From assembly GCA_034780895.1 (NCBI GenBank), contig JAUZTB010015204.1:1-64000 (forward strand): a stretch of 64,000 bases of DNA, read 5' to 3'. The translations under genes were made by a program, and so were the position numbers. A model generated the notes under the pieces. It saw only the letters and a program-made list of their open reading frames with translations, did no database searches and had not been told where the DNA came from. The stretch is from Rhynchobatus australiae (lineage: Eukaryota). Positions 29,652-43,832 of this stretch are shown piece after piece (position 1 is the first letter of the stretch; the number at the start of each line of letters is the position of its first letter).

Positions 29652-30608
29652 TTAATTAGTGCCTTTTTTGTGATTATTTTGGATTTACTTTTTTTCTTTT
29701 TGGCTTTCAATTTTAATTCATGCAGCCGCTGCAATCATTGCCGCATTATCGGTAGCTAAATATAAAGGCGGAATAATAACATTAGTAAACTTTTTACTTA
29801 TTTGTTCACGCAAGTATTGATTGGCACTAACGCCTCCTCCAATAACTACACTTTTGAACTGATAATCAGCATAAAGCTTATCAACTTTTTCTAAAAGTAA
29901 ATTAATTAAATGTTTTTGTAAAGAACACGCTAAATCTTTAGCTGTATATTTTTGTGAATTTCAAAGGTTTACAACTTGTGATTTAATTCCGCTAAATGAT
30001 AAATCATACTGCTTAGTTTTAACTTGATTAAGTTTAATTGGTCGATAATTTTCGTCTTTACACAACTTTTCAATTGCTGGTCCACCAGGAAAACCTATGC
30101 CTAAGCGATTTGCAATTTTGTCTAAGACTTCACCTAGAGCATCATCTAAAGTGTTACCCATAATAGTAAAATCATTTTTAAATTCACTTTTTATTAATAA
30201 ACTATGTCCTCCTGAAACGACAATTCCTAAAACTGGATACTGATATTCCTTTTCAAAAAGTCCTGAATAAAAATGACCTTCTAAGTGATTAATGGCTATC
30301 AAAGGTAGATTAAAAGTGAGTGCTAAAGCTTGTGCAGCCAAATATCCTATGTGTAAAGTGCCTAATAATCCAGGTTCTTTAGTGTAAGCAATACAATCTA
30401 AATTGTTAATTAAATTTTTTTTTTTAACTTCATCAATTAGTGATAATAAATTATGAACGTGCTGTCTTGATGCTAATTCAGGAATGGTGCCACCAAATTT
30501 TGCAAAAAAATCAGCTTGAGATAAAGTTTTTAAATAAACTATTTTTTTGTTCTCAACTATACTTAAAGAGGAATCATCATGACTCGTTTCAATTGCTAAG
30601 ATTTTCAT
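29652..30608 (-). CDS. tsaD: tRNA N6-threonylcarbamoyltransferase
   Basis: ILAIETSHDD, PELASRQH, NHLEGH, SGGH, GGGVSAN and DNAAMIA motifs. Confidence 0.96.
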
Positions 30609-31129
30609 TTTGGAACTCCAATATTTGGTTTTTTCAAATAATAAGGCTCAACATCTAAAGCGTTTTTTTCTTCTTTAAATTGATTTTTAAGTTCGTGAAA
30701 ATTATTAATTAAAAATTGATAATCATAATTTTGAAAGCAATAATTTTGTGGTTTGGCAACTAAACTTAATTGTCCTGATTTTTTTTGATAAGCAAAATTG
30801 CCACGTGCATCAATAAGCTTATTTTGATTTTTAAAAAAGGTAAAACTATCAGTTGTAAATAAAGGAATTTTATTTAAATAACTAAGTGTTTGAAAAAAAA
30901 CTAAAGTGGCTCTAATGCCTGTAAAATAACCAGGACCTTTTGAACAAAAAAGACCTTTCAGATCGTTTATTTTTAAGTTTTGAGTTTCTAAAATTTTTTG
31001 AAAGGCAGAAATTAAAAGTTCAACTTTTTGTTTAATTTTAGGTTCAATTATGACACTAATTTTTTGAAAATTTTGATCAAATAAAACTAAATAAAAATCA
31101 TAATAAGTAGTATCAGCAAATAAATACAT
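30605..31129 (-). CDS. tsaB: tRNA threonylcarbamoyladenosine biosynthesis protein TsaB
   Basis: GPGYFTGIR, IDARG and EPYYLKKP motifs. Overlaps tsaD. Confidence 0.9.
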   Translation of the reverse strand: MYLFADTTYYDFYLVLFDQNFQKISVIIEPKIKQKVELLISAFQKILETQNLKINDLKGLFCSKGPGYFTGIRATLVFFQTLSYLNKIPLFTTDSFTFFKNQNKLIDARGNFAYQKKSGQLSLVAKPQNYCFQNYDYQFLINNFHELKNQFKEEKNALDVEPYYLKKPNIGVPK

Positions 31130-31163: not shown

Positions 31164-31193
31164 AAAAAAGTAGCAAAGAATTGCTACTTTTTT
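31164..31193 (-). terminator. Intrinsic terminator between the tsaE fusion gene and tsaB
   Basis: Perfect inverted repeat aaaaaagtagcaa-agaa-ttgctactttttt. Confidence 0.7.
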
Positions 31194-31206: not shown

Positions 31207-31998
31207 TTAATAAATACTTTTTATTTGTTTGTTTTTTAAAAAACCTTTTAAAATTAATATTTCTATTGCATCTTTTAAAAACGCTGAAGTTTCTGCGAAT
31301 AAGGTTTCAACAAACTCAACACCTCGTGCTTCCAAGTCTTTAAAAATTTTATTTCAATAATTAACCGTATCTTTACGCCAAACTCATAAGCTTAAAATTT
31401 CTCTTTGACGAATTTTATTAAAAGCACTTAAAACGTTTAATATTAATTCTTGTTTTAAACCTTTTCGAATAGTGCGAAAGGAAAGCTTATTAATAAAAAT
31501 AGCATCGTATCTTTTTTCTAATAAACGACTGTTCCAAGTTTTTAAATTATGTTGAATTTTGCTTTGCATTGATAAAAGTCATTGATCATTATTAGCAAGA
31601 TTATAAATTCAAGCGAGTTGCTGATTGATAGCGTTTTGTGATAAGTTTTTAGCGAATAAGACCGGAACCTTACTTTCAATGATAGTAACATCACTTTGGT
31701 ATTTTTTTATTAATTTAGTAGTAAATGTTCTGTTTTTGTCGCGCGGAATTTTGGTGTTTATTTTTCCTGTTGAAAACCTAAAAATGCGTTTACTATAACC
31801 GTTTCGGTAATTGTCGCTTTTGTGTCTAGATTCTTGGTCTCATTTTGAGTAACCTAAGTAAGTTGAAAGTTCCGCTTCTAAAGTTGTTCTAATAAATTCT
31901 GCAACAATAACATTTATTAGTTTTTTAATTTCAAGATTAGTTTTTAAAATTTTACTGATGACTTTTTCATTTTCGTTTTCAGTATTTTGATTTTTCAT
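31207..31998 (-). mobile_element. IS256-family transposase-derived domain (truncated, catalytic Asp residues lost)
   Basis: LEAEL..LGY, RNGY, IPRD, KYQ, WNSRLL, ILSLW and DLEARGV motifs. FINK and FAET replace the two catalytic Asp motifs, and there is no CxxH/Glu region. No terminal inverted repeats seen. Confidence 0.8.
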
Positions 31999-32394
31999 CT
32001 TATTTTCCTCAATGAATTCAATTTGGTAAATGTAGTTATTGGAACTTTTGTTAATATTAATAATTACATCTGCTTGGAGTTGATAATCGAGACGATTGGC
32101 TCATTCGATAAAAACAGTTTTATCTTCAAAATAATCTTCAAAAAAACTTAGATCACCGTGGTGATTGTATAAATCTAAATGAACAATATTTTGATAACTA
32201 TGCATAACGTTAAACGACGGACTTTTAATAGAAATGCCAGCTTCTAAAAAAGGAGCTAAAGTTTTTACAAAAGTAGTTTTTCCGCTTCCCAATTCACCAT
32301 TTAAAAAAATTACTTTTTTTTGAAAACGCTTTCAATTATTTGCTAAATATTGTTTTAGACTTGTTAAACAATTAATTACTAAAATATCATTCAT
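31207..32394 (-). CDS. tsaE: TsaE ATPase fused in frame to an IS256-transposase-derived domain (395 aa)
   Basis: The N-terminal 132 aa carry GELGSGKT, SPSF, HLDLY and FIEW. The frame continues without a stop (..QIEFIEENK-MKNQ..) into LEAELSTYLGY..YRNGYSKR..IPRDK. Confidence 0.85.
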
Positions 32395-32441
32395 TTTACT
32401 ATTATAATTAGAATATTTTTTTAATATTTATAATTAAAAAC

Positions 32442-33497
32442 ATGATAAGGAAAGTTTTGGAAAAAATAAATAAAAACTCTCATTTTTTATTAATTATCAT
32501 TAATTATGTCATTTCAAATAACGAACAAAAATTGTATATAGCAGATTCACAAAAAAAACATCTTTTTTATGAAACTTTGAGAAAAATTTATTTCATAGCA
32601 ATATTTTTTTTCATTATAGTTTCTTTTGGTTTAGTAGTTATTGATCGTGCTAATGCAGTGAAATTTAGAAATTCAATTACACTTAGCGAAACCTTCATTT
32701 TCTTTGTACTTTTAGTTGATTATATGTTGTGAGCACTAACCCATCGTGTGCGTCATAACGGTAAGCAACTTTCCGCCTTTTTATACCCTTTTACTTTTGG
32801 CGGCATCATTGCTTTATTATCACTTTTTCCTTCATTTTGGGTAATTAACAATTTTTTACCAAAAAGAATTGTTGGTTTAGACGTTTTAAAATCACTAGTA
32901 TTTTTAAGATTAGGAAGGATTTTACAAATTCTTTCCGTTTTTAAGCCTTTCGAGATTTTAATTAACGCCTTAAGAAAACAAAGGCGCATTTTATTCAATG
33001 TTTTTTTGTTTGCTATCATTTTAATTTTGCTCTTTGCGGCAATTATTTATAATGCAGAAAGCAATGAGCAGCCTGATAATTTAAAAAATTATTGAGATGC
33101 TATTTACTTCACAACAATTACACTAACAACGATTGGTTTTGGTGATATTTATCCAGTTACAGAATTTGGAAGAATTATTATTATAATTTTATCTTTAAGT
33201 GGCATTGCCTTAATTGCTATTCCTTCAGGTATTATTGCGGGAGCTTTTCTAGAAGAAATTCAATTACATAAAAAAAATCAAAAAGAAAATTTCAAAGAAG
33301 TTATGACTAAAAATAAATACAGTCTCAAAGTGCGTAATTATTTTTATTATCAAAATGATCATGATTTTTTTAACATTAATAAATATAAGCAAAAATATTT
33401 ATTAATAAATTCTCAAAAGAAAAAAACTTCTTTAGAAAAAAACGCTAAAGAAGAAAGTAATAGCAAAAAAAGTTTTGAAAATGAAAAAGAAAAATAA
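32442..33497 (+). CDS. Potassium channel (ion transport) protein
   Basis: S4-like FLRLGRILQIL and pore motif WDAIYFTTITLTTIGFGDIYP. Confidence 0.9.
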
Positions 33498-36620: not shown

Positions 36621-37475
36621 ATGTTTGGTCACCAAAAGATCTTAGATAATAAGAAAATTATCATTAAAAATTTAACTTTTCAATATCATGAAAATTTTAA
36701 AGCAGCTCTTAATAATATTAGTTTTGAAATCGAGCGTGGTGAATACGTCGTTTTTGTTGGTCATAATGGTTGCGGAAAATCTACTTTAGCAAAAATTTTA
36801 GCTGGCGTTTTACCTTTACAAAAAGGCAGTGTTTCGATTTTTGGAAATCAAATTAATGAAAAGAACAAACGCCAACTAAAACAAAAAGTCGGCATCATTT
36901 TTGATAATCCAGATTATCAACTGATTGGTTCAACAGTTAAAGAAGATATCATTTTTGGCTTAGAGAATTTCAATGTTGAAGTTTCCAAAATGGATCAAAT
37001 TGTTGATGATGTTTTAACTAAAGTTAATATGCAAGAACATAAAAATAGTTCACCAATCCATCTTTCCGGAGGACAAAAACAAAAAGCAGCACTAGCTACA
37101 ATTTTGGCAAATCAACCCGAATTAGTAATTTTTGATGAAGCTCTTTCGATGTTAGATAGTCAAGGAAAAAAACAAATTTCAGAAATTATTCATGTTCTCA
37201 GAAAACGTCTTCAACAAACCATCATATCCATAACTCATGATATGGAAGAGATCAAATTAGCTGATCGTGTTATTGTTTTTAATGATGCTCAAATTGTTTC
37301 AATTACTAATTATGAGGAACTAATTGAAAAACCTCTTTTTTTAAAAGAAAACCATCTATCTTTACCTTTTAGTTGTGAATTAAGCCACGCTTTGATTCAA
37401 GCCCAAATACCTTTAAAATCGTGCAATCATAACCATCAATCTTTAATCGAGGAATTATGTTCAATTATGAAATAG
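36621..37475 (+). CDS. ecfA1: ECF transporter ATPase A1
   Basis: GHNGCGKST, NPDYQ, LSGGQKQ and ITHD motifs. Confidence 0.9.
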   Translation: MFGHQKILDNKKIIIKNLTFQYHENFKAALNNISFEIERGEYVVFVGHNGCGKSTLAKILAGVLPLQKGSVSIFGNQINEKNKRQLKQKVGIIFDNPDYQLIGSTVKEDIIFGLENFNVEVSKMDQIVDDVLTKVNMQEHKNSSPIHLSGGQKQKAALATILANQPELVIFDEALSMLDSQGKKQISEIIHVLRKRLQQTIISITHDMEEIKLADRVIVFNDAQIVSITNYEELIEKPLFLKENHLSLPFSCELSHALIQAQIPLKSCNHNHQSLIEELCSIMK

Positions 37476-38639
37476 ATATTAATGATTTTCATCCTCTTTT
37501 AAAAAAAGAATTTCAAAAATTTGAACCTAAATTAATAAAATTAGAAAAACAATTTACTAAGCGTCATAATTATTTAACTAAAAAATTAAACAATGCCACT
37601 AACAGTCAAGAAAAGTTAAGTCGCATTTCTAATTGGGAGGCCAAAGTAGCTACGAATAAATATCGCTATTATTTAAAGATCAATAAGTATTTACAATTTT
37701 TTGCCAAAAATAACGCTTATGCAAAAGAAGAACAACCTAATAATATTCCTTCAAAATGGCACAATCAAGACCTTAATTTACACGGTGTTAATTTTTTTTA
37801 TACTCATGATGCACACCACCCTAAACACGTTTTAAAAAATCTTAATTTTGCTTTTAGTGCTTCTCAAATTAGTGTCATAATGGGAACTACTGGATCCAGG
37901 AAAATCTACTTTAATTCAACTTTTAAACGCTTTAAATACACCTACAACTGGATTTATTCATAGTGGTAATTACTATTTATTTTCGAGCAAAAAGAGTTTA
38001 AATATTTCACAAATTAGAACAGAATTTGGCTTAGTATTTCAGTTTCCAGAATACCAATTATTTGCTAATACGATCCAAAAAGAAATCTTAAGTGGATTAG
38101 TAAATTTAAACAAAAAATATAAAAACAACCGCGCCCTTGCAAAGAAATATTTAGAGCTCGTTGGCTTGCCTTTAGATTATTTAAATCGCAGTCCTTTTCA
38201 GCTCTCTTCCGGACAAAAAAGAAGAGTTGCACTAGCAAGCATATTAGCACTTGAAAGTGGAACTTTAATTTTAGATGAACCTACTGTTGGTTTAGATCCT
38301 GAAGGTATTCAATGATTAGTTCAACTATTAGTAAAATACAGAAATGATAAGCAAAAGCGTATAATAGTAGTTACTCATGATGTTAATTTTCTCTATGCTA
38401 TTGCGGATCAAGTTTTATTATTAGACCAAGGTACTTTAATAATTAAAGACACTCCTTTTAATTTTTTCAGTAATGAAAAAATTGTGCAAAGATACCAAAT
38501 AGAAAAGCCCCATGTTTTTAGTTTTGTAGAAGCTTTAAAAAAGAAAAATTTGATTTTAGAAAACGAACAAGTTCGTACTATCAATGATTTAGTTAAGGAA
38601 TTAAACAATCTTTATAAGCAAGGAAAAGATTATGCATAA
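37457..38639 (+). pseudogene. ecfA2: ECF transporter ATPase A2, interrupted by a one-base frameshift in Walker A
   Basis: The first frame reads MGTTGSR then stops at 37963. The shifted frame from 37899 reads GKSTLIQLLN..FQFPEYQLF..LSSGQKRR..DEPTVGLDP. Confidence 0.8.
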
Positions 38640-41836: not shown

Positions 41837-42826
41837 ATGTTAAAAGGCCACTTTAAAAAGATTTGAGAGGAGATTGTTGAAGCACAATCAATCGTTATTT
41901 TTCATCATATTCGTCCTGATGGTGATTGCTTAGGAGCGCAGGAAGGTTTGTATCAACTTATTAAGGCTAATTTTATTAATAAAGCAGTTCATAAAATTGG
42001 TAACCCTTTAAATACTTTAAAATTCATGAACTGAGAAATTAAAAGTGAATTAGATGCTAATTTAAATTATGATTGCGCAATTATTGTTGATGCTAATAAA
42101 ACTGAAAGAATTGAAAATCGCGATTTTTTGAAAAATCATTTTCAAAAAATATTACGTATCGATCATCATCCAACAGAGGATGATCTTGATGAATTTGCTC
42201 CAAAAGTAATTCGTTGGGTTGATAGTTCCTTTGCGGCCAGCTCTGAGCAAATTGCTTTTATGGCTAAAGAACTAAATTTAAAAATGACAAAGCGCGGCGC
42301 AGAAGCTTTATATTTGGGAATTTTAACTGATGGCGGTCATTATAAATACGCAGCTGCAGGAGCTAACACTCTTGAAGCGGGAGCGTATTTATTAAAAAAT
42401 GGTGCGGACAAAACTTTTTTAATCAATAATCTTGAAAAACGCAATTTACAAGACTTACTTTTACAAAAATTGATTATTAAAAATACTAGAATTTCTGAAA
42501 AAATAATTTATTACACAATTACTCGTGAAGAAGCACAAAATCTAAATTTAGAACCGCAGCAAGTAGTTCGTGTTAATACTCTAGCAAATATTGATGATTT
42601 TTTTGTTTGAATGTCATTTACTGAAGAAGCGAATCAAAAAATTCGTGTTGAGTATCGTTCAAAAGGTCCAAATGTTTCTTTAGTAGCACAAAAATTTGGT
42701 GGTGGCGGGCATCTTCATGCCAGCGGTTCGATAATTGAAGGTAATTTAAGAAATTCACAACAAAAAATTAATGAAATACTCGCTTTTGCGAACCAAACTA
42801 TTAAGGAGTGAGAAAATGGCTCATAA
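41837..42826 (+). CDS. DHH/DHHA1 phosphoesterase (NrnA-like nanoRNase/pAp phosphatase), copy 1
   Basis: HIRPDGDCLG, IDHH, GILTD and GGGGHLHASG motifs. Confidence 0.9.
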
Positions 42827-43832
42827 AGTAACAATAGGTAATAGTTCGCAAATTTTGCACGCAATTAATCAAGCTGATAATATTATTATTTTTCATCACA
42901 TCAGACCTGATGGCGATTGTTTAGGTTCGCAAGCAGCCTTAGCCGAATTAATTAGAATTAACTACCCGCAAAAACAAGTTTTTATTATTGGTAATAATTA
43001 CAAACAATTTCCTTATTTAAATTGAAAATACGATGAAAATGAAGATTTAATAAAACAGACTCACGGCACTTTTTTGGCTATCGTTGTCGACACTTCCAGT
43101 TTAGACAGAATCGAAAATAGCGAATTGTTTAATTCTTCGTTTATTCAATATCGCGCTCGTATTGATCATCATGAAGTAAGCGAAAATGCACTTTATAATT
43201 ATTCATGAGTTAATCCTGAAGCAGCTGCAGCTGCTGAAATGGTGATTGAACTCGCTAAAAAACACAATTTAAAAATTAGTTATGAATTTTTAGAAAAAAG
43301 TTATTTAGGACTAATGACAGATTCGGTTCGTTATCTTTATTCTAATCAACGCCACCAAACTTTGGAATTAGGAGCTTGAGTAATTTCACAAGGGTTTAAC
43401 CCTAAAGATTTATATCGTAATTTGTATAAAAAAACGATGAAAGACCTTTCTTATCAGGCCCATGTATTATCTAATTTTACTCAAGAAGGAAAAGTTCTGT
43501 ATTTTATAGTTCGTAGAGAAGAATCTTCAGAATTTGGTTTTATGCAAAACGAAGCCGCCATGTTTGTTAATTTATTAGCAAATATTGAAGATAATCGTAT
43601 TTGACTTTTTGTTGTTGAAAATGAAGATCATACTTTTCGCTTAAGAATTCGCTCTAATGGTCCTTCCTTAATTGCTTTAGCACAAGAATATAATGGTGGC
43701 GGGCATGCCTTAGCTTCTGGTGCTTCGATTCCATCTTTAAGTGAATTACCACTTTTTTTGAAAAAGTGTAACGATTTAATTCGTTCTTTTCACAAACAAA
43801 ACAATTTAAAATTAAAGCGAAATTTAAATTAA
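42816..43832 (+). CDS. DHH/DHHA1 phosphoesterase (NrnA-like), copy 2
   Basis: HIRPDGDCLG, IDHH, GLMTDSG and GGGHALASG motifs. Confidence 0.9.

Follow-up and report, generated by a model that had tools for sequence, protein, structure and literature searches.

A putatively domesticated, catalytically dead IS256 half-transposase joined in frame to tsaE in a mycoplasma contig

The window analyzed in the present study (64 kb, the first part of a contig of 69,206 bases in a eukaryote assembly of 2.2 Gb in 81,522 contigs) contains an open frame in which tsaE runs into the N-terminal half of an IS256 transposase without its catalytic residues. On balance, we favor the explanation that this half is a domesticated, dead transposase encoded by a separate gene, which would act as a blocker of IS256 ends and was likely joined to tsaE late. 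In this scenario, an ancient insertion likely placed an IS256 element between tsaE and tsaB, and its ends, last third, and catalytic residues would have disappeared. Selection likely retained the remaining half as a DNA-binding protein in its own right, with only its position coupling it to tsaE, and a one-base slip likely joined it to tsaE only late.

Results

Origin of the contig

The contig is that of a mycoplasma, with TGA read as tryptophan and a G+C content of 29%. The best named protein matches of the TsaD encoded in the window were from Mycoplasmopsis agassizii (57%) and Mycoplasma testudineum (55%), and, thus, no close relative is on record; among the related tsaD loci, the nearest TsaD was only 58% identical. 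Bacterial-type ABC genes were present on at least five other contigs of the assembly, and 269 kb in total, including 160 kb of one further contig and 40 kb of another, was examined as mycoplasma sequence. On the mycoplasma contigs of this fragmentary assembly, the half-transposase was present as a single copy and no other IS256-like match was found. A contig of 1.5 kb (L002; G000:C18766 1-1501) carried an IS256 fragment together with an intact-looking gene of the IS6 type, without the use of TGA for tryptophan, and likely derives from a second bacterium in the assembly. Two genes that we take to be NrnA-like (DHH) were arranged in tandem at window positions 41837-43832, and a single relative protein matched both.

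The tsaE region

The features of the region are as follows.

32442-33497, plus strand: potassium-channel gene, divergent from tsaE, used as a synteny marker (Ion_trans_2, E 3e-19)
32401-32406, minus strand: TATAAT box, 6 nt 5' of the tsaE ATG, read from the sequence and not listed by the consensus scan
32002-32394, minus strand: coding part of tsaE, amino acids 1-131 (PF02367)
31996-32010, minus strand: junction, read from the sequence, with GAGGA at 32010-32006, four A at 32006-32003, an out-of-frame TAA at 32002-32000, and ATG at 31998
31207-31998, minus strand: IS256-derived half-transposase, 263 codons (PF00872, E 1.1e-30)
31164-31193, minus strand: hairpin resembling an intrinsic terminator between the half-transposase and tsaB, from folding
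30596-31129, minus strand: tsaB (PF00814, E 6e-08), 39-41% identical to its nearest relatives
29685-30608, minus strand: tsaD (PF00814, E 4e-75)

The initial annotation had described tsaE as open into an IS256 region when TGA encodes tryptophan, and the assembly indeed contains one open frame of 395 aa from 32394 to 31207 (minus strand, table 4), in which seven TGA codons are read as tryptophan. The profile check proposed with it also gave matches for both parts of the 395-aa protein, with PF02367 at aa 16-117 (Pfam, E 6.7e-22) and PF00872 (Transposase_mut) at aa 151-378 (E 3.8e-30, profile positions 17-242 of 379). The TsaE part exceeded the cut-off of TIGR00150 (NCBIfam), while the IS256 model NF033543 (NCBIfam) scored 106 of 150 bits, below its cut-off. 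All features of TsaE were present, namely, an intact Walker A motif (GELGSGKTT), the SPS/TF loop (an intact SPSF motif), the EW motif, the full length, and the tsaB-tsaD neighborhood. This TsaE was the sole match in the assembly, and was 43-52% identical to its nearest relatives.

The tsaE ATG was not preceded by a Shine-Dalgarno sequence and the TATAAT box lies only 6 nt before it, which suggests a leaderless message with the box as its likely promoter. The hairpin behind the half-transposase comprised 13 pairs, including A6/U6, and a 4-nt loop (-16.8 kcal/mol, z -4.3), and none of 200 shuffled sequences was as stable; it was absent from the list of a simple terminator scan. The tsaB gene carries its own AGGA ribosome site. 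Judging from the sequence, the region is likely organized into two transcription units, one of tsaE and the half-transposase and then one of tsaB-tsaD. The earlier idea that the transposase-derived domain regulates the t6A operon was not supported, as the terminator-like hairpin separates the half-transposase from tsaB. A search of Rfam returned two sub-threshold matches only, which we took as chance.

The potassium-channel neighbor of tsaE was also found in three related loci (L155, L156, and L157). In the two nearest genomes (G535 and G536), tsaB lies between tsaE and tsaD in inverted orientation (L155 7565-8098 and L156 2319-2852), and the clade has therefore seen more than one rearrangement of this junction.

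A one-base difference at the junction

At the junction, the sequence is GAG GAA AAT AAG ATG in the window, whereas three relatives have GAG GAA AAA TAA; one A is missing, which shifts the TAA by one base relative to the frame and leaves it one base ahead of ATG 31998. The exact ending GAG GAA AAA TAA occurred in three of 30 related tsaE genes, a Shine-Dalgarno-like tetramer within the last seven codons in 24, and an ATG within -4 to +6 of the stop in 26. The related TsaE proteins ended at window residue 128-129 in 26 of 30 cases, with the other four being misplaced by the aligner. The last tsaE codons in relatives hold the ribosome site of the next gene. Since the junction is the usual tsaE ending shifted in frame, a single base separates the fusion from two ordinary genes, and since the terminal ribosome site of tsaE and the ATG are kept, the IS-derived gene occupies the former coupled position of tsaB. 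An out-of-frame TAA by itself is commonplace in AT-rich DNA; it is the joint match of position, length, and ending that carries weight.

The proposal that the GAGGA upstream of ATG 31998 (32010-32006) allows separate translation is, accordingly, well founded. We consider it probable that the half-transposase took over the ribosome site that tsaE carried for tsaB, that it is translated from ATG 31998, and that the transcript led by tsaE ends at the hairpin. A linker is absent from the junction, even though the divergence of the tail exceeds two changes per site; because no remodeling was seen anywhere at the junction, the join is likely late and young in comparison with the divergence of the tail, regardless of whether it is real. 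Programmed frameshifting is unlikely here, as no slippery heptamer was seen by eye and only four A are present.

The fusion is present in the assembly only, and the contigs of the single sequencing run that contains this stretch leave the junction uncovered. Frameshifts were searched for by homology (131 homologous loci, 158 kb) and with a codon model (approximately 230 kb of coding sequence). At least two true frameshifts were found in approximately 230 kb of coding sequence (269 kb examined), and two represents a floor because each method caught just one of the two true breaks. They were located in ecfA2 at approximately 37896 (window 37880-37910) and in an ABC ATPase gene on G000:C3499 at approximately 110942. 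In both, the Walker A codons contain one surplus base, and the surrounding context, CCAGGAAAA, is shared, whereas 13 other Walker A motifs recovered with a motif pattern were intact; the surplus bases may reflect either an assembly error of a systematic kind or a recoding site without an explanation. The ecfA2 gene also has an N-terminal extension of approximately 100 residues ahead of the ABC domain (window 37457-37750), which was unmatched in the two relatives searched. Two of the three frameshift calls of the codon model were overlapping gene ends and were discarded. There was no sign of a general homopolymer error, with no homopolymer loss in 269 kb, and an error linked to CCWGG was rejected, as 24 of 83 sites were located outside long open frames in comparison with 162 of 600 random places. 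Errors are thus apparently present at a low rate, and the reading of the join as an assembly error is weakened because the assembly is mostly clean. We lean toward a real recent mutation and give an assembly error a substantial, though lesser, chance. If the join is real, the cell would contain a read-through product of 46 kDa in addition to a free protein of 31 kDa, and TsaE would likely tolerate the tail.

The fusion in relatives

A search for the same fusion in related mycoplasmas had been proposed, and the fusion was not found in the relatives searched. In 38 related tsaD loci, tsaE adjoined in 31 and tsaD stood alone in seven; 30 of the 31 adjoining tsaE were separate genes (126-164 aa, abutting tsaB) and one was fused to tsaB, and none of the 38 loci contained a transposase. 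Among 7322 candidates of 217-692 aa, two matched, neither of which was a fusion. IS256 was not seen beside tsaE or tsaD among the copies listed for 19 of the 26 IS256-bearing family genomes, the positions of which were compared by eye, and scans with back-translated patterns returned no relatives, or distant bacteria only. We found no report of a TsaE-transposase fusion in the literature covered, which included few subscription journals.

The loss of the tsaE stop has a precedent because TsaE-TsaB fusions occur in the family. At least nine of 150 matches listed had TsaE in frames of 323-350 aa, which is an undercount because these frames stop at TGA; the genomes concerned, besides G204, were G379, G432, G436, G446, G225, G434, G440, and G046. 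A TsaE-TsaB fusion was confirmed in G204 (L096 545-1501), and supplement 8 of PMC4014445 lists a fused TsaE for both M. auris and M. alkalescens. As in the window, tsaE in these mycoplasmas reads into the gene coupled behind it. However, the partner in TsaE-TsaB fusions is a subunit of the same complex and the junction has been remodeled, whereas the partner in the window is foreign and the junction is one base from the unfused layout.

Anatomy of the half-transposase

Domain boundaries and residue numbers were transferred from the ISCth4 transposase TnpA (6xg8), as given in PMC7780238. All four domains lie on the minus strand.

31852-31998, minus strand: DD, dimerization helices, mapped from ISCth4; 4/4 strongly conserved columns kept
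31693-31851, minus strand: NDB, the N-terminal DNA-binding domain, mapped from ISCth4; 18/23 shared columns kept
31522-31692, minus strand: helix-turn-helix (HTH), eroded; 6/17 shared columns kept
31210-31521, minus strand: catalytic part (CD); 17/54 shared columns kept

The loss of the catalytic aspartates reported in the initial annotation was borne out: D175 of ISCth4 corresponds to N302 (FINK) and D241 to E368 (FAET) in the window protein, while, among 93 aligned homologues, D occupies the first site in 91 and the second in 84. The protein had also been described as stopping before the CxxH and Glu region. The Glu (E348) region is absent; however, the frame does reach the CxxH position, which reads K..K (poorly aligned), and stops there, where the insertion domain would start. 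Terminal inverted repeats were not evident around the half-transposase, in agreement with the earlier description; only AT-rich chance pairs were found, and the ends of five related elements matched the region no better than shuffled arms. A check for a target duplication (8-9 bp) yielded only AGGAAAA before both ATGs, which is explained by the ribosome sites.

The suggestion that the N-terminal region binds DNA was sustained at best for the NDB subdomain, as the end-contact residues of the HTH are mostly changed. The NDB contacts K58, Y59, R70, R104, Y105, and R107 of ISCth4 read K, W, R, K, Y, and S, and five of these six residues named as DNA contacts are, thus, the same or similar. The NDB is also more basic than in intact relatives (15 K+R and 4 D+E versus 11-12 and 8-9, respectively). 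In the HTH, Y120, G123, T126, and R127 read F, N, Q, and N; the mutation of these four residues reduced DNA binding in IS256 (PMC7780238). That all four are changed argues against our preferred explanation. Relatives that appear to be intact share the changes from Y to F and from G to N, and the other two are absent from L243, L245, and L097. One of these closest IS256 matches, L097, comes from G409, an entry of 17.8 Mb versus 0.4-1.3 Mb for family genomes, which is likely mixed with other DNA. It is reasonably likely that the half-transposase binds DNA through the NDB as a dimer.

A model of the half generated by AlphaFold2 with 70 homologues (pLDDT 87, pTM 0.81) contained the expected helices and a five-strand sheet; it leans on intact homologues and indicates compatibility with the fold rather than function. 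The fold of the 395-aa protein from the single sequence was uninformative (pLDDT 37.6).

Selection versus decay

Against the near intact transposase L245, 229 aa of the half-transposase aligned with 31% identity, 59% similarity, no gaps, and no stop. No protein among 1.84 billion representatives exceeded 33% identity over most of its length. In 179 family genomes and 398 scored order genomes, the best matches were intact IS256 transposases (29-36%) and there was no orthologue; the true donor of the half-transposase is unsampled, with a best full-length identity of approximately 36%.

Conservation differed between domains. Identities to three near intact transposases were 55-56% in the NDB, 21-25% in the HTH, and 20-25% in the CD, versus 56-60%, 46-51%, and 61-69%, respectively, among these transposases themselves. 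The shared columns kept were 21/28 in DD+NDB versus 23/71 in HTH+CD (Fisher p 2.4e-4), and, in a wider set, 15/17 versus 11/24 (p 0.008); three held-out copies with intact catalytic aspartates kept 52-65 of the 71 HTH+CD columns. Hydrophobic columns of HTH+CD were still hydrophobic in 49 of 59 cases, against a background of 48%. In simulations of random decay, in which indels were not counted, 263 codons remained free of stops in 2-5 of 1000 runs when 30% of the residues were changed and in 59-78 of 1000 at 15%, and 161 HTH+CD codons remained open in none of 2000 runs at 60%. The probability of at least 18 of 23 NDB columns being kept under decay was 0.001 or less. The codon usage of the half-transposase was host-like (0.68 versus a host median of 0.67). 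In a quick tree that omitted L243-L246 and placed the half-transposase without support, its end branch was 2.38 versus a median of 0.42.

The initial annotation had proposed selection on the catalytically dead frame, and the frame without gaps or stops, the domain-selective conservation, and the decay simulations indirectly strengthen this view, making it highly probable that selection has acted at the protein level. A folded protein that has lost catalysis but has a working NDB would be predicted to show this pattern under selection. A passively decaying relic of an unsampled, divergent IS256 lineage, the frame of which is open by chance or as part of a translated operon, would be consistent with the lack of an orthologue in these genomes, with the 6-8% of random runs that keep the frame at 15% residue change, and with the existence of very divergent IS256 lineages (L122 and L159, branches >2.6), but is very improbable because it leaves the domain contrast, the NDB columns, the absence of gaps, and the hydrophobic columns unexplained, and because L122 and L159 keep their catalytic aspartates.

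Parallel half-transposases

Open halves that end near the same boundary were present in two other mycoplasma lineages, and these parallel halves were not beside tsaE. In G441, L118 (1180-1959) is a single-copy open IS256 half of 259 aa with no aspartate at the first catalytic position and a similar gradient of identity (NDB 35%, HTH 9%, CD 15%). It is likely independent of the half in the window because the two are only 19% identical (43 of 232 aligned positions), and no orthologue of it was found in 179 family genomes. The other lineage is represented by a syntenic, immobile IS256 copy in G419, G417, and G418 (L100, L101, and L104; approximately 1000-2300) with approximately 90% DNA identity. 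Each copy has approximately 264 open 5' codons and 5-7 stops or frameshifts from codon 275 of 427, and the chance of this split into an open 5' and a decayed 3' part is approximately 1e-4 for approximately 10 distinct lesions with the first discounted. The dN/dS of the trio (0.39-0.52) was not clearly lower than that of full-length paralogues (0.40-0.84); both catalytic aspartates are kept, and the three genomes also hold full-length IS256. A single-copy, open, and strongly diverged IS256 half of 181 aa was also observed in G485 (L119 1447-1992).

A broader reading is that the domestication of the N-terminal 260 residues of IS256 transposases has recurred in mycoplasmas, with the window, G441, and G417-G419 as independent cases, and that the half in the window is now a real C-terminal domain of TsaE, the reset ATPase of t6A synthesis. 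The transposase would be cut at the boundary of the insertion domain, and the halves would be host-encoded DNA-binding proteins serving as anti-transposon blockers or regulators. We regard this as possible, but unlikely.

Discussion

In our preferred explanation, the half-transposase is a separate domesticated protein, and we tentatively suggest that its job is that of a dead competitor, which would either cover the subterminal site in IS256 ends or poison dimers by pairing with incoming transposase, and thereby block transposition. The lack of a partner counts against such a blocker: no intact mycoplasma IS256 was found in the fragmentary assembly or in G441. The IS256 end motif TTTTGTG[TG]AAA initially appeared to be enriched (p 1e-4 at order 4); this was rejected at orders 5-6 (0.08-0.1), which also counts against a blocker, and 33 of its 38 sites were coding. 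A job as a DNA-bending regulator of the host ranks behind the IS256 competitor and is rather doubtful.

The corresponding explanation as a whole, in which a domesticated half bends DNA as a host regulator, or serves as a nucleoid protein, without any relation to IS256, and its position behind tsaE is incidental, appears to be improbable. It would account for the long persistence without a detectable partner element and for the more basic NDB, and the NDB bends DNA by approximately 30 degrees in ISCth4, as described in PMC7780238. However, the NDB is as near to intact transposases as these are to each other, which is expected if the old target has been kept; no enriched host site was found, and full-length IS256 is still present in all three genomes of the trio.

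Less probable again is that the fusion is real and selected, with the transposase half tying TsaE to nucleic acid or dimerizing it and thereby tuning t6A synthesis. The frame is open in an assembly with few errors, TsaE tolerates a C-terminal partner in the family, the DD helices could dimerize TsaE, and TsaB2D2E2 dimers exist (PMC6009658). Nevertheless, the view of the fusion as the selected unit was not supported: no linker is present at the junction, which keeps the ribosome site, the ATG, and the tsaE stop shifted by one base, none of the relatives searched provides a second example, and similar halves elsewhere are not beside tsaE. Furthermore, the kept NDB binds DNA grooves in ISCth4 (PMC7780238). 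The tethering of TsaE to tRNA, which was also suggested, was not supported, as TsaE and tRNA exclude each other on TsaBD (PMC6009658). As TsaE blocks the access of tRNA to TsaBD, and some mycoplasmas have lost TsaE (PMC4615747 and PMC4014445), a role in t6A synthesis is unsupported. The TsaE fusion alone matters little unless confirmed by reads and found to be recurrent.

Regarding the separate half-transposase, which we favor, the retention of a dead half by a genome-reduced bacterium implies a benefit, and the syntenic trio in genomes with full-length copies makes the idea of a blocker testable. The ISCth4 paper describes the NDB as having no other structural homologue (PMC7780238), and, thus, its reuse, if true, would represent a new source of bacterial DNA-binding proteins. 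We found no report of a bacterial domesticated IS256 in the literature covered, in which most subscription journals were not included.

In comparisons with IS256 transposases (ISCth4 TnpA, PDB 6XG8, and those of the intact Mycoplasmatales elements L243, L245, and L097), the half-transposase retains the order DD-NDB-HTH-RNase H, is collinear and free of gaps, and has the signature LGYxKWDQxSRxK[ST]DNYRNG in common with L243 and L245. Unlike these transposases, two of its aspartates are changed, it has no CxxH, insertion domain, or E348 helix, its HTH is eroded, and it is a single copy without terminal repeats.

The domestication of transposases is well described in eukaryotes, and the plant proteins FHY3/FAR1 are of Mutator origin. 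Truncated-transposase inhibitors encoded by mobile elements are represented by IS911 OrfA, IS1 InsA, and Tn5 Inh. In each of these, as would be the case for the half-transposase, an inert part of a transposase competes for ends or subunits; however, OrfA, InsA, and Inh are made by the mobile element itself, whereas the gene of the half-transposase is fixed in the chromosome and is not surrounded by an element. IS256 and MULE belong to one superfamily (PMC7780238), and FRF proteins have been described as truncated and as competing for DNA sites (PMC10847358). Plant FHY3/FAR1 and FRF are of the same superfamily as the half-transposase, but are eukaryotic and use a different DNA-binding module, whereas the half-transposase is bacterial and built on the NDB.
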